A stretch of DNA of 64,000 nucleotides from a virus (IMGVR_UViG_3300028887_000075:64001-128000); one strand, 5' to 3'; numbered from the stretch's first letter, positions 1,097 through 62,679 are shown. The notes: generated by a model not told the origin, from the letters alone. Numbers and translations are program-made.

Positions 1097-1663
1097 CTAG
1101 AGGCTCTTCCAGTCAGCCCTGGCACGCGCCAGGGCGTTTTCGTATTCTGACTTTGCCTGTATCATGTAGGCGGCTATGTAGCCCTTGAGCAGGTCTGCGG
1201 CTACCTGCCGGTAGCCCCCGGAGAAGTATACCCGGTTCCCAGCCTGGCAGTACCCCTTGGCATCCACCTGGACCTCGGCGTAGCTGTCGCACTCGTCCAC
1301 CTCGGACTCGGAAATACCGTTGACTAGGTCCCACTTCATCTCGTATATCGCGTCCGGTTTCGGCCGGGTGACGTCTACCGTGACCGTGATTTCGTTCCCG
1401 GCCATGTCCTTGAAGATGACCGCCTTGCCGGAGGTAGTGGTGGCCACCTGGACCACGGATAGCGAATCCGGTCGCTTCTCCGAGTGCTGTCCGGCGGTGG
1501 CTCCCGGGTGGTAAATCATCTTGTGGTGCGTGGGGCACAGGGGTATGGTGACGTCCTTGTTCAGGGTGACCCCCAGTTCCTTCGGGTGGATGTGATGGAA
1601 CTCTATAAGGGACCTGTCGTCGGTCTCGTACTGGCAATTAGGGAACACGCACCTGTACTTCAT
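1097..1663 (-). CDS. HNH endonuclease-domain protein
   Basis: N-terminal CxxxxC...EFHHIHP...LCPTHHxxxH pattern typical of the zinc-binding HNH domain. Confidence 0.7.
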   Translation of the reverse strand: MKYRCVFPNCQYETDDRSLIEFHHIHPKELGVTLNKDVTIPLCPTHHKMIYHPGATAGQHSEKRPDSLSVVQVATTTSGKAVIFKDMAGNEITVTVDVTRPKPDAIYEMKWDLVNGISESEVDECDSYAEVQVDAKGYCQAGNRVYFSGGYRQVAADLLKGYIAAYMIQAKSEYENALARARADWKSL

Positions 1664-1702
1664 GGCCTGAAACTACTCCATATTCCGCGGAACGGCGATT
1701 TT

Positions 1703-1714
1703 TTGCTATATTTG
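1703..1714 (+). promoter_or_regulatory. TTGCTATATTTG promoter motif, 4 nt upstream of ATG 1719
   Basis: Recurring intergenic 12-mer; fits extended -10 TGnTATATT and Bacteroidota-type TAnnTTTG. Confidence 0.75.
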
Positions 1715-1718
1715 TGGC

Positions 1719-2219
1719 ATGCGGTTCATGAAGTACATACTGCTCCTGGCATCCCTGGCACTGTCGGCCGAATACGGGATGATGTCCGTCTGCACCAGGC
1801 TGGACGGGCACGAGTACTGCTATACCGCCGAGAGCAGGTATGTCGCCATAGAGATTGGGGGAACCCTCCTCGTGGCCAACGGGTTCAACCACCAGAAGTT
1901 CTTCCAGGCCGGGAAGGATACTACCTTCTACAACAAGGACAGCATCATGATATGGTACGCCCCGATGAAGGACGAGGACTCTACCTTGTTCCTCGTCCAC
2001 GAGTTCCGGGACGACGATGCACACGGCAAGACAAAGAACCTGTGGATTTCCGATACCACAGGGTGCGTCACAGTGAAGTACGCCGGGGGCAACCGGGAGA
2101 ACTACGACAGGTTCTACCGGAGCTTCCGGGTGGACACGATGGAACACGAGTTGATGCTTATAGGCAAGTGCCAGGACAAGAGATATGGAAAACAGCCCGA
2201 AAAAATTACCAAGCCTTGA
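1719..2219 (+). CDS. Hypothetical secreted protein
   Basis: N-terminal signal-peptide-like MKYILLLASLALSA; promoter motif immediately upstream. Confidence 0.7.
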   Translation: MRFMKYILLLASLALSAEYGMMSVCTRLDGHEYCYTAESRYVAIEIGGTLLVANGFNHQKFFQAGKDTTFYNKDSIMIWYAPMKDEDSTLFLVHEFRDDDAHGKTKNLWISDTTGCVTVKYAGGNRENYDRFYRSFRVDTMEHELMLIGKCQDKRYGKQPEKITKP

Positions 2220-3378
2220 CGAGTACCTGAAGGAGGCCGAGGGACCCTGCCTGAACAAGACGGTGTCCCCGGACGGCAAGTACGTCAAGTTCAAGTATAC
2301 CGACCACTGCACCTACTCGATGGGGTGGAACGAGGTGACCCTGCATGCCAGGGGGCACGTGTTCCGCCTTTCCGACGGCAAGTGCGTACTCCGTCCCTGG
2401 GACAAGTTCTTCAACTACGGGGAACTGTTCGGTCAGGACGGGAAACCCACCCAGCTGTACAAATTGCTCGACGATACTCCGGACATGCGCCCCGAGCGTG
2501 CCCTGCAGGGCCCGTTTACGGCCACCGAGAAGTTCGACGGCTCGCTCTGCATAGCGGGCATCGTGGATGGTGCACTTCTGTGCACTAGTTCCGGGTCGTT
2601 CACCGCGTGGCAGGCGGAGTGGGCCAGTGACTGGCTCGAGCGCAACAACGTAGACAAGTGCATGCGCGAGGGAATGACCTACCTGTTCGAGATTATCGCC
2701 GATGCCGACCTGCATCCTATCCGTTATGCCTTCGAAGGCTGTGTATTGCTCGGAATCATCGACAACGATACCGGTATCGAGCTCCCGTATGACGAACTTA
2801 TGGATTTCGGACCGCCACTCCACCTGCCGGTAACTCCCAGGACCTTCTGCGTGAACCTCAACGACGCCATGTCATATGTAAGGAACCTCCCGAAGACACA
2901 GGAAGGCCTCGTGGTGACATACCCGTCCGGATTCAAGCTGAAGCTTAAGGGGCCGGAGTTCCTGAAGATACAGAAGGTGTTCCACAGCCTGTCCGAGAAG
3001 AGTCTCCTGGAGGCGTTCGATTATCACAGGGGAGACTTCCCTGCTGATATACGGGAAGTTGTACCGGAGGAGTTCAAGGACCTCTGGGCTTTCATGAACA
3101 ACTTCAAGGCCGACTACGAGATGAACCTGTGCATGTGCCTGGGATACAGGGCATATGCTATTGCCCACGAGTATACCCCCAGGGAAGTATGGGATGGGGC
3201 AAACCGGGTATTCACTGGGAGGAGCCGGTTAATCGGGGCGGCCACGGCAGCAGCGAAAGTCAAGTGTATCGACGACCCGTTTCTCCATTCCATATGGAAA
3301 ATTGTATATGACGCCATGGTCAAGGAATGGAAGGACAAGAAGGACAACAAGGACAACAAGGAAGTTAGCAATGGCTAA
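2185..3378 (+). CDS. RNA ligase, T4 Rnl1/RnlA family
   Basis: ARGHVF, PWDKFFNYGE, motif I EKFDGS, YLFEII, EGLVV, KLKLKG. Confidence 0.85.
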   Translation: MENSPKKLPSLDEYLKEAEGPCLNKTVSPDGKYVKFKYTDHCTYSMGWNEVTLHARGHVFRLSDGKCVLRPWDKFFNYGELFGQDGKPTQLYKLLDDTPDMRPERALQGPFTATEKFDGSLCIAGIVDGALLCTSSGSFTAWQAEWASDWLERNNVDKCMREGMTYLFEIIADADLHPIRYAFEGCVLLGIIDNDTGIELPYDELMDFGPPLHLPVTPRTFCVNLNDAMSYVRNLPKTQEGLVVTYPSGFKLKLKGPEFLKIQKVFHSLSEKSLLEAFDYHRGDFPADIREVVPEEFKDLWAFMNNFKADYEMNLCMCLGYRAYAIAHEYTPREVWDGANRVFTGRSRLIGAATAAAKVKCIDDPFLHSIWKIVYDAMVKEWKDKKDNKDNKEVSNG

Positions 3379-4597
3379 TCACTTACCGCAAATCATCGAG
3401 TATCTCAGCGACAACGACTTCTACAAGTATACCATGGGGCAGATGTTCGTGCACCAGTTCCCCGACGCAACCTGCGAGTGGACCTACAAGAACCGCGACC
3501 CCGAGCGCAAGTTCACAAGGGAGATGATTGACGAAATAAACTACCAGATTGACCTGTACTCCAAGCTCCGCTATACCGAGTGGGAACTCGATCAGTTCGC
3601 AAAGATTCCGTTCATCAAGGGCGACTACGTGAACTTCCTCCGCAGGTACACTGTAGACCGCAGCCACATCACCTGCGAGTTCGACGAGCAGACCGAGCAG
3701 CCGGTAATCCATTTCCGCGGCTACAACGTGGACGAGAGCTACCACGAGGTGCCGGTGATGGCCATCGTGTCCGAGGTGTGGTTCCGCATGACCTACAGCG
3801 AGGAGCAGCAGGCGGCAATCATCGCCGACGCCAAGGCCAGGTTCAGCGAGAAGCTGGATTCCCTCATCTCCGGCAAGGTCAAGCTCGGGGCGTTCTCCGA
3901 GTTCGGTACCCGCCGGAGGTTCTGCCGGGAGTTCCAGGAATGGGCCGTGGACGAATTGATGAAGTACAAATTCGACGGGACCAAGTATGTAGGCACGTCC
4001 AACGTGTACATCTCCTTCGTGAAGGGGACTTCCCCGAAGGGCACGATGGCCCACGAGGCCAACGAGCTTGTCGGCCAGGGATATCCTTTCCATAACCCGT
4101 CATACTCCAACTACTACCTGATGAAGGCGTGGATTAAGGAATACGGTGTACAGAACGGCATCTTCCTTACTGACTGCATCACCACCGACTGCTTCCTGAA
4201 GGACTTCGACATAACGTACGCTACGCTCTTCAGCGGTCTCCGCCACGATTCCGGCGACCCGATGGAGTGGGGCGAGAAGATGCTCTCCCACTACCAGAAG
4301 CTCGGCATCGACACAAGGACAAAAACCCTCCTGTTCAGCGACAGCCTGGACTTCCAGCGCGCCGAGGTGATATACCAGAGGTTCTCGCTCCGTTGCGGCG
4401 TCGCGTTCGGAATCGGCACGTGGCTCCTGAACGACACAGGGCACTTCAAGGCAATGAACCAGGTAATCAAGCTCACCGAGGTCAACGGAATCCCGGTATG
4501 CAAGATTTCGGACGCTCCCGGCAAGTTCATGGGGAAATCCGAGGAGTACCGCAACTACCTCCAGCGGGCAATCGACTGGCGAGTGAACCACGGATAA
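3371..4597 (+). CDS. pncB: Nicotinate phosphoribosyltransferase
   Basis: DNDFYKYTM, EFGTRRR, GTSNV, GTMAHE (phospho-His), RHDSGDP, FSDSL, FGIGT, KISDxPGK; ATG 3371 overlaps the ligase stop. Confidence 0.92.
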   Translation: MANHLPQIIEYLSDNDFYKYTMGQMFVHQFPDATCEWTYKNRDPERKFTREMIDEINYQIDLYSKLRYTEWELDQFAKIPFIKGDYVNFLRRYTVDRSHITCEFDEQTEQPVIHFRGYNVDESYHEVPVMAIVSEVWFRMTYSEEQQAAIIADAKARFSEKLDSLISGKVKLGAFSEFGTRRRFCREFQEWAVDELMKYKFDGTKYVGTSNVYISFVKGTSPKGTMAHEANELVGQGYPFHNPSYSNYYLMKAWIKEYGVQNGIFLTDCITTDCFLKDFDITYATLFSGLRHDSGDPMEWGEKMLSHYQKLGIDTRTKTLLFSDSLDFQRAEVIYQRFSLRCGVAFGIGTWLLNDTGHFKAMNQVIKLTEVNGIPVCKISDAPGKFMGKSEEYRNYLQRAIDWRVNHG

Positions 4598-49781: not shown

Positions 49782-50060
49782 ATGGCCACTCAGAAAAAGA
49801 CACCCAAAAAGACCCTGGACGACGCCATCAAGGCGCTATCCAAGGCAAAGACCAAGAAACAAATTTCGAAGTGCGCCGGTGAAGTCATAAAGCTGGCCGA
49901 GGAGAAGCCCGAACGGACGAGGACCAGCCCGAAGTATTCCCGCTTCATAAAGGCCACCCCCGACCTGAAGGGCAGGCTCGTCACCAGGTTCTACGTGGAC
50001 AGGACCCTCGACTTCTATGTCACCGATGTGAACTACCGCCGCCCTTTAGGGCGGCGGTAG
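49782..50060 (+). CDS. Hypothetical protein whose 3' end lies inside an IS-derived palindrome (possibly truncated)
   Basis: Last codons and stop are supplied by the 50028-50065 palindrome. Confidence 0.55.
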   Translation: MATQKKTPKKTLDDAIKALSKAKTKKQISKCAGEVIKLAEEKPERTRTSPKYSRFIKATPDLKGRLVTRFYVDRTLDFYVTDVNYRRPLGRR

Positions 50061-50067
50061 TTCACAT
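50026..50067. repeat. Perfect 42-nt palindrome made of two inverted IS605 right-end tips
   Basis: AT-GTGAACTACCGCCGCCCT-TT-AGGGCGGCGGTAGTTCAC-AT; right arm matches the element end at 30267-30284 with one mismatch. Confidence 0.85.
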
Positions 50068-50187
50068 GAAAATGGCTATTTCAGCCAAAATACCCAGGAA
50101 AAAAATACATTACCAATTTTCAAAAATCGCGTCGATTTCCACAAAAAACGGTATAGTTTCCTGTACAGAAAACCAACGAGGCCATCA

Positions 50188-51276
50188 ATGTACAGGGGAA
50201 TATACAACCTCCGCTCCGCAGACGACAACATTATACTCACCGCCGAGCAACTAGAAGAAAGCATCAAGTGCTCCAAGGACCCGGTGTACTTTTTCAGGAA
50301 CTACTGCTATATACACAATGCGAGACAGGGACTGCACCTGTTCCAGCCACGACCCAGACAGCTGGCAGAAATCCCGGTGCTTTCATCGGAGAAGATGGTC
50401 AAGTCCGACTGGTACCGGCAATCCGGATATACCACGCTGGTACTGGCGCTCATGCTATGGAAGGCGATGTTCACCGCAAATACCGCATGCCTATACATGA
50501 TACCCAAGAAGGAACTGGCATACGAAAACTTCAACGAGAAGGTCCGCCAGATGTACCTCGCGCTCCCTGAATGGCTACAGACGGGAGTCAAGGAATGGAC
50601 GCACGAGAGGATAAGGCTAGCAAACGGTAGCATTTTCTGTGCCAAGGCGGCATCCGCCGACAATGCGGCTGGTATAGGATGGGACTACATATTCATCGAC
50701 GAGTTTGGCTGGATTAAGGACAAGGCCATGATGGAAATAGTCAACCGGCTGTTCCCGGTCGCCTGGTCCTCGAAGAAACAGCACCTGATACTGGGCCAGA
50801 GCCACCGGTTCGGACGGCAGACACCCGCCAACCTGCTGTTCTGGCAGAACAACACGCTGCCGTTCCACGTGTCCGAGTTCACATGGGACCAGGATGAGCG
50901 GCTGGACGCGAAGTGGGCAGAAGCGGAGAGGCTGCGTATCGGGGACCGGAACTTCGAGAAGCAATACTGCGGGAAGATAGAGATGAAGGACGACCCGGAC
51001 GGACTCCCTGAACAGTTCGGCAGGTGGACCGTATGGGCGGAGGGAAAGTTCCCGGATGTCAAGGAACGCTCCGGAGGAAGATACATTTGTACTGTAGCAA
51101 TGTTCAGCCGGTCCACCGGCCTGCCGGTAGGCACACCGCATATAGATGTGCTGGCCGCGGATGGCAACGGCGTGTTCCACGGGCTGTTCAGCGACGACGG
51201 GACATACGAGAAGGTAGTCGCATGGATGCCAGCACCGGAGATACCCGGGGAAGTCCGGGAGATTTACGGGGAGTGA
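50188..51276 (+). CDS. T4 gp17-like terminase ATPase-domain paralog with degenerate Walker A, no nuclease domain and a DUF551-like C-terminus
   Basis: Y.G..NL...E..KC..DP.YF..NY, RQSGYTT, LP.WLQ.GV.EW....I.L.NGS, IFIDEF; tail W...FP...VVAWMPAPE.P. Confidence 0.75.
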   Translation: MYRGIYNLRSADDNIILTAEQLEESIKCSKDPVYFFRNYCYIHNARQGLHLFQPRPRQLAEIPVLSSEKMVKSDWYRQSGYTTLVLALMLWKAMFTANTACLYMIPKKELAYENFNEKVRQMYLALPEWLQTGVKEWTHERIRLANGSIFCAKAASADNAAGIGWDYIFIDEFGWIKDKAMMEIVNRLFPVAWSSKKQHLILGQSHRFGRQTPANLLFWQNNTLPFHVSEFTWDQDERLDAKWAEAERLRIGDRNFEKQYCGKIEMKDDPDGLPEQFGRWTVWAEGKFPDVKERSGGRYICTVAMFSRSTGLPVGTPHIDVLAADGNGVFHGLFSDDGTYEKVVAWMPAPEIPGEVREIYGE

Positions 51277-51310
51277 GTTGGGGGCTACCGGGAGACTACC
51301 GGGAGGCCAC

Positions 51311-51856
51311 CTATATCCGGCAGTAAGAGTTGACGAACTCCCTTATCGTATTTACCGTGGAGGAACCGTTGTCGAAATCGCAGCATATGCTTTCGTCCCC
51401 TTCTCCGGTGTACTTGACGTGCTTAACGCTCCATCCCGTAGGACCGTAAAGGTCATAACCCAAGGCGGACTCTGTGATTCTGAGCGATTCCTTAAGTACA
51501 TTCCTGTATTGCATGACGCCATAGTTCTCCTTGCAGAATATCTCTATGGTGGGCGAGCCTGCCGTGAAGGTCACCGAGAAAGAGTACGGGGTGCCGTCGG
51601 GAGTGCGCTCATCCCGGCGTATCCGGCAAATCTGCTCCATGAAGTTGTCCACCGCGATGGCTACCAGGGAATGCCTGGCATCGGCTTCGATAGCGGCGAT
51701 TGCCTCCAGCGAGTCCAGCCTCGTCCTGTACTCATGGATTGCCTTGTCCTTCACCTCGGAAAGCTGCTCCGGGCTGATAGGAGTGGGGTATACTTTCAGG
51801 TTGCCGTCGTCGAACTTGACCTCGAAACTTAGTCCTCCGTCTAGCGTTATCCTCAT
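51311..51856 (-). CDS. Hypothetical protein
   Basis: AAGGAG RBS; TTGCTATATTTG on the minus strand at 51888-51899. Confidence 0.65.
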   Translation of the reverse strand: MRITLDGGLSFEVKFDDGNLKVYPTPISPEQLSEVKDKAIHEYRTRLDSLEAIAAIEADARHSLVAIAVDNFMEQICRIRRDERTPDGTPYSFSVTFTAGSPTIEIFCKENYGVMQYRNVLKESLRITESALGYDLYGPTGWSVKHVKYTGEGDESICCDFDNGSSTVNTIREFVNSYCRI

Positions 51857-52030
51857 GTGGCGCTCCTTTGCTTATGCGCTATATGGGCAAATATAGCAAA
51901 TTCCGGCGGGGAGCACCGGGAGGCTTGCCTGCCGGTACCGGGTCAACCGGGAGGGCCCTAGGTGGTACGCGGGGTATACCGGGGGAGAGTACTGGTTCAT
52001 AGTGTACAATATTAGTAATCAATATTTTAC

Positions 52031-52294
52031 AATTATCGGCGGGAAAGATGCCACCCTTCAGGGTGGCATATGAGAGCCGACGAAAAAATAGAAAAAGAAC
52101 TTGCATTTTTGAAACTGTTAAACTATATTAGGAACTGTCAGGCCGAAGGACACTAAATATGCGGGTACCTCCGGAACGGAGGAAACTTATGATGGTGGAC
52201 TGGTGGACCTATATATCCAAACCTATTCTGGAACGGACAAGTTCGCTGGGTTGAAACCAGAAGCTGCCGCCCTTTAGGGCGGTCTGTAGTTCAC
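52031..52294 (+). mobile_element. Non-autonomous 264-nt IS605 derivative: left end + promoter + omegaRNA scaffold + right end, no ORF
   Basis: Follows TTAC (52027-52030); left end GAAAGATGCCACCCTTCAGGGTGGCATATGAGAGCCG; TTGCAT-17nt-TATATT; 130-nt block homologous to 30155-30284 ending TTCAC. Confidence 0.88.
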
Positions 52295-52302
52295 ATTGTT
52301 GA

Positions 52303-52602
52303 ATGGCTACTATGGAAACGCATCTTATCATGTTGCGGGATGCCTTCGATGCATCCCGGATTGCCGGAGTAAATGTCCGGGAATTAATTGACGCCGGTAT
52401 ACCTGTCGGTGACATGGATATCGGTTTCGCTACTTACTTCGACATATGTCCGGGCTGGGAGCCAGGTACCGCCTGGCCAGGAACCTCCATGGACGATGGT
52501 TATCCGCTTATTGGGATGATGGTGCATAGCTGTCCTGCCGGCTATAGCGTTTCACATTCGGTTTTCGACAAGTGGCATTTCTACCTCAGGACAAAGGTTT
52601 AA
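52303..52602 (+). CDS. Hypothetical protein
   Basis: ORF between the mini-element and uvsX. Confidence 0.5.
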   Translation: MATMETHLIMLRDAFDASRIAGVNVRELIDAGIPVGDMDIGFATYFDICPGWEPGTAWPGTSMDDGYPLIGMMVHSCPAGYSVSHSVFDKWHFYLRTKV

Positions 52603-52617
52603 ACAAAGGATAATGTT

Positions 52618-53964
52618 ATGGCTGCAGCAAAGAAAAAGGGAGCAAACGCGCTTGCGGAGAATCCGTGGGCATTTTTCGATACGGTCGTTACGACCGACAA
52701 GTTCGTCGACGCGGGTGTTGACCGCCCGACGTACGGTTTCGCAGATTCCGGGAGCTACGCGCTGAACGTGCTTCTTTCCGGCGACGTCTATGGGGGATTC
52801 CCCAAGAACAAGGTCGTGCAGACGGCAGGCCTGCAGGGTTCCGGTAAGTCCCTGCTCGGCAAGTACAACTTCTGCCCACCGCTGTTCAAGGACAACTACT
52901 TCATCTACTATATCGATACCGAGAACGAGACCACCCGGAAGGACCTCGAGTTTTTCGCATCCTTCCCGTGTCAGCAATTCAAGGTGCTTCACTTCCATAC
53001 GGTAGAGGATTGCCACCACGGTATCTCCACCATCCTCAAGCAGCTCGAAGATTATATGGAGAAGAACAAGACGCTCATCAACCCGCACAAGGTTGCTTTC
53101 GTCCTTGACTCCCAGGGCATGCTGTCCACCGCCAAGAACATCACCGACGTGCTCAAGGGTGACGACAAGACCGACCTTACCAAGGCAAAGAAGCTCTCTG
53201 CGATGTACCGTGACCTTACCTTCCGTCTTGGTGAACTCGGTGCCCCGATGTATGTCACCAACCACATGTACCTTGACCCGAACGCGGCCACCACCCATAC
53301 CGAGACCAAGAAGGTCGCCGGTGGCGAAGGCGCCAAGTATTCTGCTTCCATCATCCTGTCCGTCTACAAGATTACCGAGCGTGTCGACAGCGGAAAGAAG
53401 GATGACTACGGCAACAAGGTCAAGGAGGTCCAGGGTATCTTCATCCAGGTCGGTAACATCAAGAACCGCCTTGTCCATGAAGGACTTAGCACCCGTCTCT
53501 ACCTGAGCTACAAGAATGGTCTCAGCCGCTACTACGGTCTCCATGTCTGGGCGCAGGAAGCCGGTCTCATCGTTCCCTACACCAAGCAGGCCGACTGGCC
53601 TGGCCTGGAACTTCCGAGGAACCCCGACGGTTCCACCTTCCTCGGCAAGAAGTGGGTTATCTGTGACCCGCGCAAGCCCCGTACGGAATGGCTGGTCGCT
53701 CCGGAGAACAAGATTCATTCCGCCAAGTATATCGGTACGATTCTTGACCCGATTAACGACTATGTAAAGGCCAAGTACAAGAACCAGAAGATTGGCGTGT
53801 TCGGCGACGAGGATACCGAGCAGGCTACCGAGGATGAGCTTGCCAACGTAGACGAGGCCGCGCTCGACCAGGCAGACGCCGAACAGAACAGCCGGTTCAT
53901 CCGGGAGGCTGCCCAGAAGGCGGAGGCCCTCGGGCTGGTCGCAGAAGGCTCCGCCGAAGACTAA
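52618..53964 (+). CDS. uvsX: RecA/UvsX-like recombinase
   Basis: DSGSYALN.LLSG...GG.P, AGLQGSGKS, YIDTE, VLDS.G.L, VTNH.Y, GGEG.KYSAS. Confidence 0.88.
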   Translation: MAAAKKKGANALAENPWAFFDTVVTTDKFVDAGVDRPTYGFADSGSYALNVLLSGDVYGGFPKNKVVQTAGLQGSGKSLLGKYNFCPPLFKDNYFIYYIDTENETTRKDLEFFASFPCQQFKVLHFHTVEDCHHGISTILKQLEDYMEKNKTLINPHKVAFVLDSQGMLSTAKNITDVLKGDDKTDLTKAKKLSAMYRDLTFRLGELGAPMYVTNHMYLDPNAATTHTETKKVAGGEGAKYSASIILSVYKITERVDSGKKDDYGNKVKEVQGIFIQVGNIKNRLVHEGLSTRLYLSYKNGLSRYYGLHVWAQEAGLIVPYTKQADWPGLELPRNPDGSTFLGKKWVICDPRKPRTEWLVAPENKIHSAKYIGTILDPINDYVKAKYKNQKIGVFGDEDTEQATEDELANVDEAALDQADAEQNSRFIREAAQKAEALGLVAEGSAED

Positions 53965-53976
53965 TTAAAAAAGTTG

Positions 53977-54006
53977 AAGACCGGCCCCTCTCCGGGTCGG
54001 TCTTTT
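53977..54006 (+). terminator. Intrinsic terminator after uvsX
   Basis: AAGACCGGCCC...GGGTCGGTCTT-TT hairpin. Confidence 0.7.
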
Positions 54007-54016
54007 GCTATATTTG
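54005..54016 (+). promoter_or_regulatory. TTGCTATATTTG promoter motif
   Basis: Exact motif upstream of the helicase. Confidence 0.7.
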
Positions 54017-54045
54017 GGAACGAACGAACTCGGATTTTGACTGCT

Positions 54046-55683
54046 ATGGAAAATTTGCAAAATCCTACGTTCGCGCAGCCTGTTCCGGCGATGCAACCGG
54101 GGTATCCCCCGGTAATGCAACCGCCACCTCCGCAGCAGCTACCGGTAGCTCCCGGTGGCTACATGCAGCCCCAGCAGCAGGTATATGCGTTAACGCGGGA
54201 AGACTTGGTAATTAGGGTATTCTTCCAGGATTCGGTAGTGGGACCAAAGCTACGCGATTCCCTGCGTGCGGAACTGTTCCAGGACGTGAACAACCGCAAC
54301 ATCGTGGAAATTATCCGGAAGTACATGCATAAGCATGGTCGTGTACCAACGGCACAGGAACTTATCACCGGCATGGGGGCGAACGACTACGCCATACAGG
54401 CCCGTGACAAGCTGATATTCATCTACAACACACCCATCCAGACGATGCATCAGGACTACGTGGTTCTGATGGTTGAGTCCTTCTTCAAGGAACGTCTGGC
54501 CGAGGAGGTGTTGGTGTCTGCCGCGGAGCAGATTCACGACAAGAAGGTTGATGGGATACGTGACCTCATCCCGCGTTTGCAGGCTGCAGTCACGTACAGC
54601 CTGCATACCGACCTGGGTCTCAACCTCTATTCGGATGCGGATACGGCACTGGCGAAATTGCGCGAGCAGAAACAGTGCATCCCCTCCGGTATCAATGAGA
54701 TACGATACTACACTGGTCGCCCGGGACTTGACGGAGTCATGGTCGGGGGCGGATACTACCGCAAGACGCTTTCCCTGTTCGTCGGGCAGCCCAACATAGG
54801 TAAGTCCCTTGTCCTCTGCTCGGAGGCGGCATACGCATACAAGAGCGGGTTCAATGTCCTCTACATAACCCTGGAACTTGCCGAGGACTATGTGTGGCAG
54901 CGTCTCGCGGCCAACATATGCGAGGTGGACTTCTATTCGGTGATGAGCCTTACCGGTGACGAGGTCAGGAAGAAGATTGACGAGAATGTCGCCAGGTTCT
55001 CCGCTACCGGCGCCCGTCCGGGACAGCTCCAGGTTCGCTACATGAAGACCACGACCACCCCGGTGGAAATCGAGGCGGTCATCGACTCGTTCGAGATTGC
55101 TCACGGTAAGTTGGATTTGCTGGTCGTTGACTATATCGGTATCATGAAGCCGGCGAGCCGTGGCAGGGTCTCGGAGTCAAGCATGTACCAGGACGGTGTC
55201 GCCAAGGCCGAACAGCTTCGCGATATCGCCATCGAGAGGAACTTCGCCTGCCTTTCCGCAGTGCAGTTCAACCGTTCCGGCTACCACAATACCGAGGCGG
55301 GCATCGAGTCGGTCGAGGGTTCTTCCGGTTACGCCGAGACTTCCGACCTGATGATTTCGCTGACGGCGAACGACGTGCTCCGAAGCATGGCGATGTTCAG
55401 CCACTATATCCTCAAGTCCCGCCTCGGACCGGCGCTCGTTACCTTCCTTACACGGTGCGACTTCAAGCAGATGCGCTGGTTCAGCCCGAGTAAGGAGGAG
55501 GTCAATGCATACAACACGGCTGCCGCCGAGGCGGAACCGCAGATGAACGCTCCCCAGAGGAACGGACAGAAGGGACAGCCGAAGCGTGCGGTAAGCAAGC
55601 CGGCAGAACCCCAGGCCCTCCCGGAGGCTACCGGGGAGACCCAGGAGGCCGTCAAGGTAGAGACCGTGGCGGACTACGTATGA
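54046..55683 (+). CDS. T4 gp41-like (DnaB family) replicative helicase
   Basis: GQPNIGKS, VLYITLEL, LVVDYIGIM, AEQLR.IA...SAVQ.NR.G, KSR.G; Pro/Gln-rich N-terminus. Confidence 0.88.
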   Translation: MENLQNPTFAQPVPAMQPGYPPVMQPPPPQQLPVAPGGYMQPQQQVYALTREDLVIRVFFQDSVVGPKLRDSLRAELFQDVNNRNIVEIIRKYMHKHGRVPTAQELITGMGANDYAIQARDKLIFIYNTPIQTMHQDYVVLMVESFFKERLAEEVLVSAAEQIHDKKVDGIRDLIPRLQAAVTYSLHTDLGLNLYSDADTALAKLREQKQCIPSGINEIRYYTGRPGLDGVMVGGGYYRKTLSLFVGQPNIGKSLVLCSEAAYAYKSGFNVLYITLELAEDYVWQRLAANICEVDFYSVMSLTGDEVRKKIDENVARFSATGARPGQLQVRYMKTTTTPVEIEAVIDSFEIAHGKLDLLVVDYIGIMKPASRGRVSESSMYQDGVAKAEQLRDIAIERNFACLSAVQFNRSGYHNTEAGIESVEGSSGYAETSDLMISLTANDVLRSMAMFSHYILKSRLGPALVTFLTRCDFKQMRWFSPSKEEVNAYNTAAAEAEPQMNAPQRNGQKGQPKRAVSKPAEPQALPEATGETQEAVKVETVADYV

Positions 55684-56435
55684 AGATTGCCGGAATAGAC
55701 CCGTCGATGAACTCGTCAGGAAAGGTCATAATGGACCTGGACGACGAGACGTTCGACGTGAATGACATCCAGTTCTACGGGTACCAGCCGAAGCTGAACG
55801 CGGTTCTGGAGACCGAGCATGTCCATATCATGTGCAGCGGGACAGACTACGACAAGGTCCCGATGCTCGTAAGGCAGGAGCGGGCTATCAAGATTCTCGA
55901 GCGGGACATGGAGGATGTCAAGTACATCTCCTTCGAGGATTACGCCTACGAGAAGGCCAACGAGGGCAACAGCAACTCCATTTTCCAGATTGGGGAGTTC
56001 TGCGGGGCGTACCGGCGGCACTTCTACCTGCAGGGGAAGGGCATCATAACCTACGGTATATGCCAGATTAAGCACTTTGCCACCGGGAACGGGGACGCCA
56101 ACAAGATTGCCATGTGTGAGGCCATGAAGGCGGTCTACCCCCAGTTCTACTATCCGGAGTTTGAGCAGTTCCCCAAGCAGTACGAGAGTCCGCATTCCGA
56201 CCTTTGCGATGCCTTCTGGATGTGCGAGATACTCCGTAACCACATCAAGTATGATATTTTGGGACCGGAGAGCCTCCCGGAGGACACCCTGGCGCTGATG
56301 CGGTTCCATACTGCCAAGAAACAGTACGATACCAGGGCGTTGGTGGACTATTCCATGGTGAGAATGGCCGACTGGCCGGTGGATTTGGAACTTCTTACCC
56401 ATCGGAAGAAGCCGAAAAGGAAGAAAAAGGCGTAG
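55680..56435 (+). CDS. RuvC-like Holliday junction resolvase
   Basis: IAGIDPSMNSSG, FEDYAY, K.FATGNG.ANK..M, DLCDAF. Confidence 0.75.
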   Translation: MKIAGIDPSMNSSGKVIMDLDDETFDVNDIQFYGYQPKLNAVLETEHVHIMCSGTDYDKVPMLVRQERAIKILERDMEDVKYISFEDYAYEKANEGNSNSIFQIGEFCGAYRRHFYLQGKGIITYGICQIKHFATGNGDANKIAMCEAMKAVYPQFYYPEFEQFPKQYESPHSDLCDAFWMCEILRNHIKYDILGPESLPEDTLALMRFHTAKKQYDTRALVDYSMVRMADWPVDLELLTHRKKPKRKKKA

Positions 56436-56469
56436 TTTTCCGTATGGATATGAACCATACGGTACTACG

Positions 56470-57153
56470 ATGGCCTACACTGTCGAAGAAGACGAAAAAA
56501 TAGACGGCGACCCGCAGGAAACTGACGGTGTGAACCGTGAAGACGAGATTGACACCTCGGGCAAGAGGAGCAAGCTGGGCGACAAGGACATCGCCCACGA
56601 GATTGACGAGTTCCTGAAGAAGCCCAGGTTCCCCGGTGACATCTGTATCACCTTGAAGATGCCCGACAACTACCTGAAGAAGGCACGGGACAAGCTCAAC
56701 CTAGCACTCTGGAACGCATACCGCAAGTACGCAAGGACGGTAACCCGTACTGACCGCTACGGTAACGAGTACGAGGTACCGGGCTTCGGCATGTTCGACA
56801 TACTTATTACGCTCGATTCCTACGTAGACCCGGTAAAGCTCAGTGCAGTGCTTGACAACGACATCAAGCAGAAGGTTGCCGAGGAGCGCGGCATCAGGAT
56901 TTCCGATGACGAACTCGAATATGTGGCGAAGCACCCGGGAACTGCCAGGGCGGACAAGGACTCCCCGGATATAGTGGAATGTCCCGAGTGCCACGGTACC
57001 GGAGAGGTGGACGGTGAGGAATGTTCCCTCTGTCTTGGACAGGGCAAGGTCGCCCGTGTTGTGGACGATGTTCCGGCAGTCGAAGCCGACGATGACGAAC
57101 TCGACCTCGCACAACTGGACAGCATGATGCTGAGGACACTGAAGAATGGCTAG
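56470..57153 (+). CDS. Hypothetical protein with DnaJ-type zinc finger
   Basis: CPECHGTG...CSLCLGQG. Confidence 0.7.
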   Translation: MAYTVEEDEKIDGDPQETDGVNREDEIDTSGKRSKLGDKDIAHEIDEFLKKPRFPGDICITLKMPDNYLKKARDKLNLALWNAYRKYARTVTRTDRYGNEYEVPGFGMFDILITLDSYVDPVKLSAVLDNDIKQKVAEERGIRISDDELEYVAKHPGTARADKDSPDIVECPECHGTGEVDGEECSLCLGQGKVARVVDDVPAVEADDDELDLAQLDSMMLRTLKNG

Positions 57154-57808
57154 GTTCAAGTTCCCTAAATACGCCGATACCCTCCGGGAGGAGAACGAGG
57201 AGTTCGAGAAGATGTTCGCCGGCAGGGAAGAGGAAATCAAGTCCCAGACGGCGCTCATAGTCAATGGCGACCTGGAGGCTGCCGGCCATAACCAGCTCGT
57301 AGTCACGGAGAAGGCCAAGAACTGGCTCGCGAAGCTCCGGGAGGAACACCACAACCCGATGATTGGCAAGGACTACATGATGCGTGCCCCGGAATTTGAG
57401 AGAGATTCCGAGGAAGTATCCAAGTCGGAATGCATGAGCGACGCCGAGGCCGACAAGATTCTCACCGTGCAGGACGATAAGAACGAGAACGTGCGCCATA
57501 TCGACGACGACTTTAACCCGAACATCACCGAGGTCGAGCTGTCCCATGACGAGGTTTCCCGTCGGTTCGTGGAGGCCTGCATCATCGACAACACGACCCA
57601 GAAGTGCATCGACTGGAAGTTCGAGGACATCCTGTCGGAATGCGCGGCTGAACTTGAGAAGGAATTCGGCAAGGAAGACTACAAGATTCCGGATGATTTC
57701 GACCAGCTGGTCGAGGCTTCCCTGGAAAAAGCGGAGAAAATGCAGCTTATCGGCATGGAAACCGCCCCGAAAATCGCCATTCCGCACCTCAATGACGAAA
57801 AAAAGTAG
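57146..57808 (+). CDS. Acidic hypothetical protein
   Basis: Coupled ORF. Confidence 0.65.
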   Translation: MARFKFPKYADTLREENEEFEKMFAGREEEIKSQTALIVNGDLEAAGHNQLVVTEKAKNWLAKLREEHHNPMIGKDYMMRAPEFERDSEEVSKSECMSDAEADKILTVQDDKNENVRHIDDDFNPNITEVELSHDEVSRRFVEACIIDNTTQKCIDWKFEDILSECAAELEKEFGKEDYKIPDDFDQLVEASLEKAEKMQLIGMETAPKIAIPHLNDEKK

Positions 57809-57939
57809 CCGAGTGGCACTTTTTGACAACGCATTTTGCTATATTTACTCGTGAACCGTTAGCCGGGCATGCTAGACGGCTATCGGTTTAATGTAAAACC
57901 GGTTAGAAACAAGGCCTTGAAGGGGCCTAGGAAACTGCT

Positions 57940-59364
57940 ATGACAAACACACCAAACACAATGCAAGCAAATGGCGGTATGCTTTCTGTTACCGCCCCCG
58001 CAGCACCCACGGCAGCACCGGGTGCAAACCGCTCAGCCAACAAGGACGAACGCATGTGGCGCCCGGTTGTCACCAAGGACAACCCGGAATACGTTGCGGT
58101 AATCCGTACGCTTCCCAAGGGCCGCGACCTTAACGCCTATCCGGCAGTGTGCGTCCTCGTCCACCGCATACGCGACATGGTCACGGGCAAGGTGCTCTAC
58201 GACAAGTGCTGCAAGAACAACCCGAACGTCCGCACCTGCCCCTACTGCGAGGATGCGTGGGGACGCTACAACGAGGCCAAGAAGCGCCCGGGCATCACCA
58301 AGGAACAGCTCGGCAAGTTCCTCCAGCAGACTGCCGACGAGGAATGGTGGCAGAATATCTATGTCCGCCAGGACCAGAACCATCCGGAACTCAACGGTAC
58401 AGTGAAGGTCTGGGCGATGAGCCGCGGACAGCACAACCGCTTCCAGAAGCCGGTCGACAACTGGAACGCCAAGCACGACCCATCCAAGCAGGTACCTGGC
58501 GCAATCAATGTCGATACAGGTGACGACTTTATCCCGTACGACCCGATGCAGGGCCGTGACTACTACATCGCCGGCAAGTGGGATGCCGAGAAGTCTTACG
58601 GTGGTCGCCGCAAGGGCGCCCCGACCTATGACGGAAGCACTTTCGTCAAGGACTCCACCCCGCTCGCCTACCAGATGGTCCAGGACCCGAACACGGGCAT
58701 GGTCGTCTACCAACCCGACCAGAACCAGATGCTCGCCATCCTCGACCAGTGCCATGACCTGAGCTTCGCATACGACAATATCCCGACCCCGGAACAGGCT
58801 ACGGCTAACCTCGCCCAGTTCTGGGACGAGTGTGCCAAGGCCGCCGCAGAACGCCAGCAGTACGGTGGCGCCCGCGGTGCCGGCAACCAGGGCTACCAGC
58901 AGCCCCAGCAGCCGCTCTACGGCCAGGCTCCGGCCAACTACGGTGCACAGCCGTTCGCTACCGGTATGCCCGGTGTTCCGCAGAACAACATCCCGCAGGT
59001 CCCGAGCAACGCCAACATCAGCATGTCGTCCGACCCGGCTGCATTCATGGGCCAGGCCGCCCAGATGCCTCCCCCGATTCCCGAGGCTGCCGCTCCGGCT
59101 ACCCCGGCTTTCGCCCAGGCACCTATCCCGGCAACCATGCCCGGCCCGATGGCTACACCTACCGCTCCGGCAGCTCCCGCAGCACCCTCGTTCGTGCCCC
59201 CGGCAGCCCCGGCAGCACCCGCTGCTCCTACAGCCCCGTCCTTTGTGCCACCGGCAGCACCTCCCGTGCAGCAGCCGATGACGCAGTTCGCACAGCCGGC
59301 TGCACCGCAGGCTAACCCGGCTCCTATCGTGGAGACGGATAGCGACGAAGACCTCCCGTTTTAA
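57940..59364 (+). CDS. T4 gp32-like single-stranded DNA-binding protein with long Pro/Ala/Gln tail
   Basis: DERMW.P, AVIR.LP, CPYCE, NIYV..D..HPE.NG.V.VW, YDP..G, YD.S.F; ends DSDEDLPF. Confidence 0.82.
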   Translation: MTNTPNTMQANGGMLSVTAPAAPTAAPGANRSANKDERMWRPVVTKDNPEYVAVIRTLPKGRDLNAYPAVCVLVHRIRDMVTGKVLYDKCCKNNPNVRTCPYCEDAWGRYNEAKKRPGITKEQLGKFLQQTADEEWWQNIYVRQDQNHPELNGTVKVWAMSRGQHNRFQKPVDNWNAKHDPSKQVPGAINVDTGDDFIPYDPMQGRDYYIAGKWDAEKSYGGRRKGAPTYDGSTFVKDSTPLAYQMVQDPNTGMVVYQPDQNQMLAILDQCHDLSFAYDNIPTPEQATANLAQFWDECAKAAAERQQYGGARGAGNQGYQQPQQPLYGQAPANYGAQPFATGMPGVPQNNIPQVPSNANISMSSDPAAFMGQAAQMPPPIPEAAAPATPAFAQAPIPATMPGPMATPTAPAAPAAPSFVPPAAPAAPAAPTAPSFVPPAAPPVQQPMTQFAQPAAPQANPAPIVETDSDEDLPF

Positions 59365-59423
59365 TTTGTATGTAATGACTCGTAAGTCAATACGACGGAT
59401 TATAGCGAAAATCTGACCATTTA

Positions 59424-59458
59424 GGGACCGGCATCAACTTGCCGGCCCCTTCTTTTTT
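59424..59458 (+). terminator. Intrinsic terminator after the SSB gene
   Basis: GGGACCGGCA...TGCCGGCCCC stem followed by TTCTTTTTT. Confidence 0.65.
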
Positions 59459-59468
59459 GCTATATTTG
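59457..59468 (+). promoter_or_regulatory. TTGCTATATTTG promoter motif
   Basis: Exact motif 8 nt before the primase ATG. Confidence 0.7.
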
Positions 59469-59476
59469 GTTCAAGA

Positions 59477-60643
59477 ATGGCAATAAGTTTCGACGACATA
59501 CCCGCGTCGGTGTACGACTCGTTCATACACGAGCAGTTCGAGCAGTATGCCCTGGATGACTCCCATCCGGGGTTCTACAACTTCGTATGTCCGAATCCCG
59601 AGTGCGGGGACATGAACTTCCCTAACAAGAAGAAGGCGTATATCTATACCGATACCTGGCTCTATGTGTGCTGGAAGTGCGGTGAGCGCATGCATTTCGC
59701 CCGGTGGCTGAAGGAGCATGACGAGCAGGCATACCAGCGGCTCCTGTTCATGGCCTTCGGAAATGACCGTGGCCAGAAGAAGGAGGCGCCCTCCCCGAGA
59801 CCAGAGAGGAAACTGGATGCCACCCTCCCGTTCAAGGACGGGGAACTGATGTCCATTTACGACAGCGACCCTCTTGCACAGGCGGCGCTTGCCCTGTGCC
59901 GCTCCCGGAGAATCCGGGAGGAGGTATACTCGGAGTGGTTTGTGTGCCGCCAGGGCGAGCAGTTCTACGACCGGGACGAGGCAGGCAACATAAAGTATGA
60001 TGACTATGGCCGTCCGAAGGGAAACGATTACAGGAACCGCATAATCATCCCGTTCTACAAGTTCGGCGGCAAGTGGGGCCAGTTCGACGCCCGTGCGATA
60101 GACCCGAACAACCCACTCCGCTACCGGAACTTTACCGGTGTCAAGCGCGGTGCCTACAATATCGACTTCATCAACTACTCCGAGACAATCTACATTCTCG
60201 AGGGTACGATAGACTCTACCTTTATCCGCAACTCCATTGCCATTGGCGGCATCCCGCACTTCGGCGAGGTGATTGCCGAGAATCCGCAGCTTGCTGCCGC
60301 CAAGGACAGGATAGTTGTGCTGTGGGATAATGACCCGGAAGGGCGCAAGGCGAGAACGGGAACTACCTGTGACCAGGGGTACAAGTGGTTCTCCTGGGAC
60401 GGGATACACAGCAAGGACGTGAACGGGGCGGTGATGTCCGGGGAGTTCCCGGTGGATGCCGACGGTTTCGTCGATAGTAATTTTCTGAAGTCCCGCACGA
60501 GGGACCCAGAAGGGGCGAGTATCCTGTTCACCATGAAGTACGGCAACATGAAGAAGGAGGCTTCGAGGAAGCGGTTCGACGCACTGAAGGCATTCCGCGA
60601 GGGACGGGCGAAGCCGAACAACCGTCCGGAGGTTCTGTTCTGA
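59477..60643 (+). CDS. T4 gp61-like DNA primase
   Basis: NF.CP..CGD...K.AY...CWKC Zn finger, RIIIPF, YILEG.IDS.F, TOPRIM WDND, KDVN. Confidence 0.88.
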   Translation: MAISFDDIPASVYDSFIHEQFEQYALDDSHPGFYNFVCPNPECGDMNFPNKKKAYIYTDTWLYVCWKCGERMHFARWLKEHDEQAYQRLLFMAFGNDRGQKKEAPSPRPERKLDATLPFKDGELMSIYDSDPLAQAALALCRSRRIREEVYSEWFVCRQGEQFYDRDEAGNIKYDDYGRPKGNDYRNRIIIPFYKFGGKWGQFDARAIDPNNPLRYRNFTGVKRGAYNIDFINYSETIYILEGTIDSTFIRNSIAIGGIPHFGEVIAENPQLAAAKDRIVVLWDNDPEGRKARTGTTCDQGYKWFSWDGIHSKDVNGAVMSGEFPVDADGFVDSNFLKSRTRDPEGASILFTMKYGNMKKEASRKRFDALKAFREGRAKPNNRPEVLF

Positions 60644-62679
60644 TGGCTAACGTACTCGTGCAGGCATACAGGAACCGGTTCCTCGACCGTGAGTTCATAG
60701 ACTACAACTTCATTACCAGGATTACCCATATCCCGTCCGAGCAGTTGAAGCGCCTAGGAGTATTTGACGGGCTTCCTTACAGGTATGACCCGCAGGGGCA
60801 CAAGGAGTTCCGCATGACGGACGCCATGTCCGCCCTTGCCAAGGCGAAGCTTACTCCGCCAGACAACCTGCACCCGCTGTACGAGTTCAGTGTAGCCCAG
60901 GCGATGAACGAGCTCCGCATCAAGCCGGAGTCGGTAAATGCGCTGATAAAGAGCGGGAAGCTCCGTACGCATGTTTCGGAATATGACAATTACCGCAAGA
61001 TTTACCGCAAGGACCTGGAATATTACCGGCGGAACTGGGACCCGGTGTATCTTGCTGAATTCATGAAGGTTCCTCTCCGTAGGAGCATGGCCGCGCTCAT
61101 AATGGGAATCCGTGCATCGACCATATGGAGGCTAGAAAGGACAAAAGCAATTACACCCATGCCCAGGAAGAAGGGCGAACGGGTAAAGTACAGCAAGGCC
61201 GAGGTACTGAGGTACCTGCATAGCCGGAAGGTGCGCGTGTACCGGAAAGACCCGCTGCCCGAATACATGAACTCCGAGCTGGCTCTGGTATATTCCGGGT
61301 TCTCCACCAGTAAGTTCAAGCAGCTTAGCGATGTAAAGCGGCTGAATGCTGAATGGCATACGTTCCCGGACGGGAAGAAGATGTGGGTATACAGCAAGGC
61401 AAGGATTGACCAGATTCGGGAAGAGGAACTAGCTCGGGAATATTACTGTGAGGGACTGCCTTACTATACACGTAGGGCAATCAAGTACAAGTTCTTCAAG
61501 ACTGACCGGTGGGTGGACATGTTCATCGTAGGTAAATGCCGCCGGATGCACGACAAGAAGAGAATACTGTCCCCTGACGAAAAAGGCGTGTCATCGCAGG
61601 GATGGGTCAAGGAGGACGTGGAGCAGGTGGTCGCGTCAGGCGTCGACTTCAAGTTCAGGAAGAAACAGAAGCCACTGTCCCGCGTTACCCGCAAGTACAT
61701 GAGAGTCGTAGCAGTGGCCAAGCCGCCGGTAGCGTTCTCCTCCCCGGTCGAACAGATGGAGGAGGCAATCCGGCTGGCACTGGATGAGAAGGCGGAAAAG
61801 AAGAAGAAACACATGGCCGACATAAGGGAAAAGATGAACTATACGATGGCCAGACGCAATGCAATCCGCAATATCCTCACGACAGGCGCATCCAACACCC
61901 CGATGATTCCGTCCAGGAATGACTTCCTCAGGTATGCTACTGACCGGCAGATTGTCACGTTCATGATATCGACCGACGGAAAGTCCGGGAGATACCGAGA
62001 ATATCCGCATACCAAGGAAGAGAGAATTTTCAAGGCCAGGCCGGGACGTAACCTGGGCAGGCGCAAGATAGCCCCGGTATTCGCACGTGCAATCCTGAAC
62101 GTGCTGACCACATACAACAGGTACAATTTTGAGAAGATACCCGCATGGGTTGTATTGGTGTCATCCACCTCCATGATTACTGACCCGATGTTCCATAGCA
62201 AGCTAGCCGCGGTCCCGGATAATGTAGGGGCGGTAGGTCCGTTCGGGTACGGATACATACTTCCGGACGGTTCGTGGGATGCCTGTTCGGAGACATACGG
62301 GAGTTACTGGGTGTACAGCGAAATTACCGGGGAGAACCGGAAGGTGGAAGGACTATCGTCGACCTCGGGTAGTCACCGGGTTGACATGCTCGACGGTCCG
62401 TTCATTGCCATACGGGGAGAGTACCTGCAGGAACTTACATCGATGAGGTATTTCATGCAGCTGGGCGATGCACGAGGTCTCCTGGCACCCACAGTATCCG
62501 CTATAATCAGGAGGCATGGAATACCTATGATGCAGATACCGGTAGATTGCTGGGCAAGCGCGGAGTTCGAGGTAAGGCCGGGTACACCCGAGATGAACCT
62601 GGCAATAGAGCGAATTACACGTTTCGTCAGTCTGAACGAAGCAGAACTTAATGCATTCCTAAAGAAAAAGAAGGTATAG
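60643..62679 (+). CDS. Multi-HTH (excisionase/MerR-like) protein with possible C-terminal glycosyltransferase-like domain
   Basis: Repeated short HTH-like units (SVAQAMNELRI...V.ALIKSGKL; AALIMGI..STIWR); C-terminal VGAVG..G...VDMLDGPFIAIR. Confidence 0.45.
   Translation: MANVLVQAYRNRFLDREFIDYNFITRITHIPSEQLKRLGVFDGLPYRYDPQGHKEFRMTDAMSALAKAKLTPPDNLHPLYEFSVAQAMNELRIKPESVNALIKSGKLRTHVSEYDNYRKIYRKDLEYYRRNWDPVYLAEFMKVPLRRSMAALIMGIRASTIWRLERTKAITPMPRKKGERVKYSKAEVLRYLHSRKVRVYRKDPLPEYMNSELALVYSGFSTSKFKQLSDVKRLNAEWHTFPDGKKMWVYSKARIDQIREEELAREYYCEGLPYYTRRAIKYKFFKTDRWVDMFIVGKCRRMHDKKRILSPDEKGVSSQGWVKEDVEQVVASGVDFKFRKKQKPLSRVTRKYMRVVAVAKPPVAFSSPVEQMEEAIRLALDEKAEKKKKHMADIREKMNYTMARRNAIRNILTTGASNTPMIPSRNDFLRYATDRQIVTFMISTDGKSGRYREYPHTKEERIFKARPGRNLGRRKIAPVFARAILNVLTTYNRYNFEKIPAWVVLVSSTSMITDPMFHSKLAAVPDNVGAVGPFGYGYILPDGSWDACSETYGSYWVYSEITGENRKVEGLSSTSGSHRVDMLDGPFIAIRGEYLQELTSMRYFMQLGDARGLLAPTVSAIIRRHGIPMMQIPVDCWASAEFEVRPGTPEMNLAIERITRFVSLNEAELNAFLKKKKV

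Follow-up and report, generated by a model that had tools for sequence, protein, structure and literature searches.

What use might a tailed virus have for a second copy of its DNA-packaging ATPase from which the catalytic lysine has been lost? The question is raised by a gene in a stretch of viral DNA of 64,000 nucleotides (IMGVR_UViG_3300028887_000075:64001-128000; hereafter 'the window'), which encodes a paralog of the large terminase subunit (TerL). Among the enzymes of tailed phages TerL alone is universal, and it is a foremost target of the pattern-recognition immunity of bacteria. An earlier, sequence-only reading of the locus had regarded the product as a disarmed terminase and a candidate decoy for terminase-sensing immunity. 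The analysis described here places the gene in a conserved family of 'pseudo-TerLs', and tentatively favours a role for that family at the terminase itself.

A terminase-like gene and the genuine terminase of its genome

The window derives from an IMG/VR virus record of 170,734 bp, for which CheckV estimates a completeness of 41%; the genomes of relatives reach 350-455 kb. The gene under study is the following:

50188-51276, + strand: complete open reading frame for a nuclease-less, lysine-less TerL paralog ('pseudo-TerL', beta-tail class), 362 amino acids plus stop

A Shine-Dalgarno sequence (GAGG, 50178-50181) lies 6 nt ahead of its ATG. As had been noted from the sequence, the neighbours are not head genes: those upstream are small reading frames that lack family matches, no head gene was found near the paralog, and a replication and recombination module (window 52618-62679, + strand), encoding UvsX-like, DnaB-like and RuvC-like proteins, a gp32-type SSB and a primase, begins 1.3 kb downstream. 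A search of positions 49900-52400 against Rfam returned no significant match.

Just 3' of the paralog lies a convergent gene for 181 amino acids (window 51311-51856, - strand), which has no family match. A homologue with 30% identity (L010:11228-11782, - strand) occupies the equivalent position beside the most divergent of the beta-tail orthologues, and none was found in the other four loci; the gene may be a partner of the paralog, or the match in L010 may have arisen by chance.

That the gene is indeed a paralog was established by a search for a genuine terL, which located a protein of 553 amino acids on the minus strand of the same record (G000:C1:11540-13201), about 101 kb away, with scores of 75.6 bits against Terminase_6N and of 24.7 bits against Terminase_6C. 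Three relatives, G003 (355 kb, at a completeness of 93%), G004 and G005, likewise have a member of the pseudo-TerL family together with a canonical TerL, and T4-type portal and major capsid protein (MCP) genes are present in G003 and G004. Two further genomes, G001 and G002, contain the paralog only; because the portal and a full MCP are missing from both, they are best regarded as fragments that carry no information on whether the paralog could serve as the sole TerL. One of them, G002 (IMGVR_UViG_3300037454_000906, 253 kb), is rated 99% complete by CheckV, yet has neither a canonical TerL nor a portal and only an 82-amino-acid MCP-like fragment, and CheckV completeness appears to be unreliable for this megaphage clade. 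The proposal that the paralog is the sole TerL of its genome, or one part of a split TerL, was rejected, since a full TerL is present and a separate nuclease half is absent.

The surroundings of the genuine TerL are conserved between this genome (G000:C1:6000-19000, locus L044) and its relative L045. In both, a set of genes divergent from TerL comprises NrdD, three unknown genes and a glycosyltransferase, and genes for about 382 and about 121 amino acids (the latter with a weak DCC1-like match) follow downstream, succeeded by Hsp20-like and sigma-factor-like genes. Neither the 382- nor the 121-amino-acid neighbour has a match to small terminase (TerS) proteins, and the L044/L045 region yielded no TerS candidate. 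A Tad2-like gene (PF11195) is found at L045:12646-13218, about 5 kb from TerL; Tad2 is a known anti-Thoeris sponge family, which indicates that the clade carries anti-defence genes.

An ATPase domain with altered motifs

The relationship of the paralog to T4 gp17-type terminases rests on the following elements:

50188-50973, + strand: T4 gp17-type TerL ATPase domain, residues 1-262 (N-terminal subdomain plus Rossmann core), with 32-34% identity to the phage's own TerL
50413-50436, + strand: degenerate Walker A, Y76-R-Q-S-G-Y81-T-T, the most conserved block of the family
50683-50703, + strand: Walker B, D-Y-I-F-I-D171-E172, retained
50794-50826, + strand: coupling-motif position G203-Q-S, followed by a nearly invariant, family-specific insert H-R-F-G-R-Q before T-P

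Homology was evident by several independent routes. The paralog is 32% identical to its own phage's TerL across residues 2-261, scores 30.9 bits against Pfam Terminase_6N (cutoff 22), matches phrog_5989 ('terminase large subunit') with an E value of 1e-36, and aligns by hhalign over residues 2-265 to a profile of 17 TerLs (E 4e-59). The structure predicted by AlphaFold from 11 orthologues (pLDDT 82, about 90 in the core) superimposes on the ATPase domain of T4 gp17 (2o0h) with a Foldseek E value of 8e-20 and an rmsd of 3.1 A over 281 columns. The part closest to TerL is the N-terminal subdomain, at 42% identity versus 31% for the rest. The pseudo-TerL derives from the TerL type of its own phage lineage.

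It is in the active site that the paralog departs from this ancestry. Tyr81 (50428-50430) stands in place of the catalytic lysine, where the genuine TerL reads SRQVGKST, and the coupling motif TST of TerL has become GQS, together with an insert of seven residues (HRFGRQ..). The nuclease domain, Terminase_6C, has no match in the paralog, and profile homology to TerL ends at about TerL column 274. The similarity to the gp17 N-domain, the lysine-to-tyrosine change in RQSGYTT, the GQS coupling region and the loss of the RNase H nuclease domain had all been proposed previously, and all four were borne out by these alignments, profile matches and structural comparisons. With the Walker A lysine replaced by tyrosine, the coupling motif replaced and the nuclease gone, the paralog is predicted to be catalytically dead, that is, a pseudo-enzyme: a copy of the ATPase domain of a T4-type TerL that should no longer be able to hydrolyse ATP, and that probably does not bind it.

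Loss of catalysis does not appear to have released the site from constraint. The altered P-loop and its helix (residues 76-100) show 66% mean pairwise identity, the highest constraint in the family, and the C-terminal tail shows 32-47%. Because this is the most constrained block, selection must be acting on the 'broken' P-loop site itself. The glutamate of Walker B is not constrained across the family, as the motif reads DN or DD in several relatives.

The C-terminal tail

In place of the nuclease, the paralog carries a short additional domain:

50974-51273, + strand: small, beta-rich C-terminal domain, residues 263-362, ending in A-W-M-P-x-P-x-x-P and weakly DUF551-like

The description of this tail as DUF551-like, offered earlier from the sequence, found weak support. 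A Pfam search of the window's own tail at E<=10 gave no match to DUF551 or to any other family; one of the 11 orthologous tails matches DUF551 (PF04448) with an E value of 2.8e-4, and the best BFVD matches of the tail model, which was folded separately (pLDDT 79), are mostly DUF551 proteins, with weak scores (E 0.02-0.1, TM 0.4-0.5). A search of the PDB with the tail fold produced nothing convincing (best Z 3.4). The second class of tail found in the family, of about 190 amino acids, has no Pfam or PHROG match. The suggestion that the tails are degenerate remnants of the nuclease was rejected, as the profile-profile alignment stops at the boundary of the ATPase domain in both tail classes.

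A conserved family under purifying selection

A word-indexed search for homologues of the paralog found 16, and phmmer, run exhaustively against 1.84 billion representatives, returned about six clusters above 200 bits, followed by a sharp fall to ordinary TerLs. Three architectures are represented: the ATPase domain only (about 262-276 amino acids), the ATPase domain with the beta tail (about 345-366, the class of the window's paralog) and the ATPase domain with the unrelated tail of about 190 residues (about 441-475). All members of the three length classes have intact frames. The signature W-Y-R-Q-[S/A]-[G/S]-[Y/F] is present in each of the 27 family members placed in the tree, so that tyrosine or phenylalanine always occupies the lysine position; one further short relative, P0030, has a more degenerate motif and is an exception to this rule.

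In a quick-search IQ-TREE analysis of ATPase domains, rather than a careful search, a branch supported at 99% (SH-aLRT) divided the 27 family members from all of the 24 TerLs. In that quick tree the beta-tail forms make up a clade (96%) nested among the forms of 445 amino acids, and long branches lead to the short forms, which are basal. It is secure that the pseudo-TerLs are a single-origin pseudo-ATPase family derived from TerL, and the family is confined to a clade of T4-related megaphages. A tblastn search of 50,697 phage records found no close family member in cultured phages; its top matches were ordinary TerLs with less than 30% identity.

The family is maintained by purifying selection, with dN/dS at about 0.15-0.3. 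The ratio is 0.23 for the beta-tail pair L010/L012, which is unsaturated; other close pairs give 0.29-0.32, and the nearest relatives of the window's paralog give 0.15-0.22, at dS values of 1 or more. Invariant columns number 72 in the alignment of 11 orthologues. The gene is thus neither the only terL of its genome nor in neutral decay (the intact TerL is present, and dN/dS is 0.15-0.3), and these were the two outcomes against which the sequence-only reading had staked its proposal. Divergence has nevertheless been rapid in comparison with TerL itself. The long forms of G000, G003 and G004 share 36-43% identity, versus 78-85% for the TerL ATPase domains of those same genomes, and short forms share 24-31% across lineages, versus 80-91% for the TerL N-termini encoded just downstream. 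Overall, the pseudo-TerLs evolve at 4-8 times the rate of TerL, which is nearly invariant.

Short members and independent dead copies beside TerL

The location of the short members bears directly on function. In five of five cases examined (G005/L025, L040, L041, L042 and L043), the gene for a short member of 262-276 amino acids sits 3-15 nt ahead of a canonical TerL gene, and the N-terminus of that TerL shares about 80-90% identity with the one in G000. The earlier statement that the gene lies outside any packaging module therefore holds for the window's copy, but not for the family. A promoter-like motif, TATAAACT, heads the operons of short form and TerL, and also precedes TerL in four genomes that have no short form (G000, L045, G003 and G004). 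In T4, the slot directly upstream of TerL is that of gene 16, the small terminase. A T4-type TerS (PF11053) went undetected in G000, G001, G003, G004 and G005, TerS proteins being hard to detect. In G000 and its closest relative L045 (TerL 96% identical) there is no short form ahead of TerL, the slot being flanked by the divergent glycosyltransferase; a TerL-adjacent short form must accordingly be dispensable.

The TerLs of L040 (5808-8801) and of L025 from G005 (1273-3384) are 997-999 amino acids long, owing to an intein with a LAGLIDADG endonuclease in the ATPase domain, which splits the Pfam N-domain match into two pieces.

Inactivated TerL copies are not limited to this family. Five proteins of about 250 amino acids (P0136, P0146, P0090, P0122 and P0140), in which the Walker A lysine has been exchanged for threonine, alanine, asparagine, serine or methionine, are closer to TerLs than to the pseudo-TerLs. 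Two of these ATPase-only copies were checked for position (loci L046 and L047), and both map to the TerL operon or the region of gene 16: P0136, with a lysine-to-threonine change, consists of the TerL ATPase domain only and is encoded 15 nt upstream of TerL, and P0146, with a lysine-to-alanine change and a Walker B of D-N, is encoded between a gp15-like gene and TerL. The latter is closest (46% identity) to its own neighbouring TerL, and is thus an independent duplication. Since both proteins fall outside the family, dead TerL-ATPase copies beside TerL have arisen more than once.

Upstream control of the relocated copy

The window's copy has an upstream region of its own:

50116-50159, + strand: gene-specific upstream region, with two operator-like boxes and a -10-like element, conserved before orthologues in non-syntenic loci
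50116-50127 and from 50134, + strand: operator-like boxes, ATTTTCAAAAAT and GATTTCCACAAAA respectively
50152-50159, + strand: -10-like element, TATAGTTT, of the TA-n-n-TTT type, about 35 nt before the ATG
50157-50199, + strand: RNA hairpin enclosing the Shine-Dalgarno sequence and start codon, with arms CCTGTACA (50160-67) and TGTACAGG (50189-96)

The conserved upstream stretch is about 75 nt long and contains boxes of the TTTTC/GAAAA type, about two helical turns apart. There is a single occurrence of the composite of boxes and -10-like element in the 64 kb of the window, where none would be expected by chance, and the palindromic box pair and TA-n-n-TTT are kept at orthologous positions in L006-L011, L013 and L015 despite saturation of synonymous sites. 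The paired boxes are probably operators for a dimeric regulator. A scan for the sigma-70 consensus found no promoter on the + strand; the -10-like element resembles the -7 motif of Bacteroidota. The hairpin at the start codon (dG -14.4 kcal/mol, z -3.1) recurs in two of four orthologues tested (present in L007 and L009, absent from L008 and L006). Promoter types differ within the family, with TATAAACT before TerL and the short forms, and TATAGTTT with its own boxes before the paralog of the window; these motifs did not point to any one temporal class.

A conserved gene neighbourhood for the long forms was considered and rejected: the six beta-tail orthologue loci are non-syntenic, having essentially only the paralog in common within 10 kb on either side. 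The window's copy is a relocated, autonomous derivative of the family.

What the pseudo-TerLs might do

The reading that is favoured here, with some way to go before it could be called probable, is that a pseudo-TerL is a non-catalytic, TerL-derived partner or regulator of terminase, which in the window has been relocated and fused to an adaptor tail. We infer such a partner because the short members are co-encoded with TerL, share its promoter-like motif and occupy the TerS slot; operon linkage, recurrence and the TerL-like N-terminal subdomain favour a role at the terminase, whether as regulator, adaptor or TerS-like partner. The possibility of a packaging regulator, raised as an alternative in the sequence-only reading, gains indirect support from the short members, which lie 3-15 nt ahead of TerL and are preceded by its motif. 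The protein would share a binding partner with TerL (the portal or prohead, the packaging-initiation complex, or TerL itself), and would regulate or adapt packaging rather than drive it. The copy in the window would have moved away from TerL, exchanged the nuclease for a DUF551-like adaptor tail, and acquired its own operator-controlled promoter and start-codon hairpin, by virtue of which its production would be timed separately. We infer both the physical contact with the terminase and the direction of any effect upon it.

Counting in favour of a terminase partner are the TerL fold and homology, the genuine TerL elsewhere in the genome, the tyrosine or phenylalanine in 27 of 27 members, the dN/dS values, the conserved altered P-loop, the independent lysine-less copies and, as weak evidence, the failure to detect PF11053. 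Counting against it are the position of the window's copy outside the packaging module and beside replication genes, its separate upstream region, and a rate of evolution 4-8 times that of TerL, which is unusual for a stable motor partner; small terminases, it may be added, are also fast-evolving. The adjacency of short forms to TerL could simply stem from tandem duplication, the short form is dispensable in two genomes, and the motor should be poisoned by any dead subunit that entered the TerL ring. A complex prediction of the phage's TerL with the paralog gave no answer (score 0.00, no controls) and is given no weight either way.

Among the other explanations, the one with the most to recommend it, though still on the unlikely side, is that the dead TerL-like domain would act as an immune decoy or antagonist, binding Avs1-3 or Upx sensors without activating them, or shielding TerL from them. 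Retention of the TerL ATPase fold after packaging constraints had gone, rapid evolution under overall purifying selection (as is often seen in conflict proteins), the repeated, independent origin of dead copies, and the resemblance of the long forms to autonomous accessory cassettes, in variable regions and with their own promoter, would all fit. EcAvs2, moreover, needs only the ATPase domain and is engaged by the standalone T4 protein vs.8 (PMC13601566), and Bechon et al. suggest that some factor can prevent recognition of terminase during infection (PMC11564622). However, Avs2 recognition uses ATP bound at the terminase Walker site, which the sensor contacts through a bridging ATP (PMC13601566), and SeAvs3 binds the folded nuclease, whereas the paralog has neither the lysine nor the nuclease. 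The known TerL look-alikes (vs.8 and Ksap1/2) activate Avs2, with no blocker known among them, and divergence from TerL would make for a poorer mimic. The broader form of the idea, in which T4-like phages repeatedly duplicate and inactivate their own TerL ATPase domain as an antagonist or decoy of Avs1-3 and Upx, and in which varied tails and separate promoters would tune the time and place of the mimic, is more doubtful again. Also doubtful is a neofunctionalised binder unrelated to packaging or terminase sensing, in which a remodelled P-loop pocket, formed by the aromatic residue and the H-R-F-G-R-Q loop, would accept another ligand, a nucleic acid or a host protein, with the DUF551-like tail providing targeting and expression being early or middle. 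The altered active-site elements, including the new arginine-rich insert, are indeed the most conserved, the C-terminal modules vary (none, DUF551-like, or the unrelated tail of about 190 amino acids), the promoter type is unlike that of TerL, a replication and recombination module is nearby, and DUF551 is portable in early-region phage proteins (PMC10834534); but the searches point to no ligand or partner, the neighbourhoods are not conserved, so that the replication context is probably incidental, and the adjacency of the short forms to TerL points back to packaging.

Two last explanations are harder to reconcile with the data. Inactive subunits can poison ring packaging ATPases, and a dominant-negative exclusion factor, directed against the terminase rings of co-infecting related phages, would account for the retention of a TerL-like N-terminal subdomain and of a core able to form rings, while rapid diversification could reflect conflict between phages. 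It is nonetheless improbable, as related phages have TerLs with 80-97% identity, such that a poison could hardly spare the phage's own, and the short forms are co-transcribed with their own TerL. Most improbable of all is that the gene is the remnant, now in decay, of a TerL duplication, or else supplies the ATPase half of a functional TerL that has been split, as the lost catalytic motifs and missing nuclease might at first sight suggest: neutral decay was rejected on the basis of dN/dS values of 0.15-0.32 and the 72 invariant columns among 11 orthologues, frames are intact, the upstream region is conserved, and the genome has a full-length TerL and no separate nuclease half.

Should the pseudo-TerLs prove to be terminase partners in the TerS slot, the view of packaging initiation and its regulation would change for a large megaphage clade. 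If instead they are sensor antagonists, they would represent the first anti-Avs/Upx mechanism by self-mimicry, in which a virus makes a non-activating mimic of its own molecular pattern. In either case the family offers a testable handle, in that comparisons can draw on a signature (W-Y-R-Q-x-G-[Y/F]), on three architectures and on convergent cases of independent origin. The literature searched yielded no account of a TerL-ATPase family that is conserved and yet catalytically dead (lysine-less); the nearest known case, T4 vs.8, retains its Walker motifs.

Comparison with known systems

With the T4 gp17-type TerL itself (Terminase_6N; PDB 2o0h and 3cpe) the paralog shares the fold and overall topology of residues 1-262, the N-terminal subdomain included, as well as the R-Q of Walker A and the D-E of Walker B. 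It differs in having tyrosine or phenylalanine for the lysine, a replaced coupling motif with its seven-residue insert and no RNase H-like nuclease, in evolving several-fold faster and, for the window's copy, in lying outside the packaging module. The tail weakly resembles DUF551, a portable domain of early-region phage proteins (PMC10834534), in its W...P, beta-strand and W-M-P-x-P-x-x-P pattern, but the window's own tail has no Pfam match at E<=10 and its structural scores are weak.

T4 vs.8 (NP_049732, 219 amino acids) is a standalone TerL-ATPase-like protein that is reported to activate EcAvs2 (PMC13601566). Like the paralog, it is nuclease-less, belongs to a T4-type phage and is encoded away from gene 17; unlike the paralog, it keeps Walker A (GGRQSGKS) and Walker B and has no C-terminal tail. 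Orthology between the two was rejected (BLASTP E 18), and vs.8 is best described as an analogue rather than a family member.

Comparison with TerS (T4 gp16) concerns position and rate. The short members hold the gene-16 position, P0146 has a gp15-like gene on one side and TerL on the other, and both TerS and the pseudo-TerLs are fast-evolving relative to TerL. In sequence and fold they are unrelated, TerS being a small helical oligomer and the pseudo-TerL a P-loop fold, and the window's copy, about 101 kb distant, is not beside TerL, as the short members, P0136 and P0146 are. A final parallel comes from ring and P-loop ATPase machines in which a duplicated, non-hydrolysing subunit, such as delta-prime of the clamp loader, is conserved as a structural or regulatory partner. 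The pseudo-TerLs resemble such subunits in being conserved duplicates that would have lost hydrolysis.
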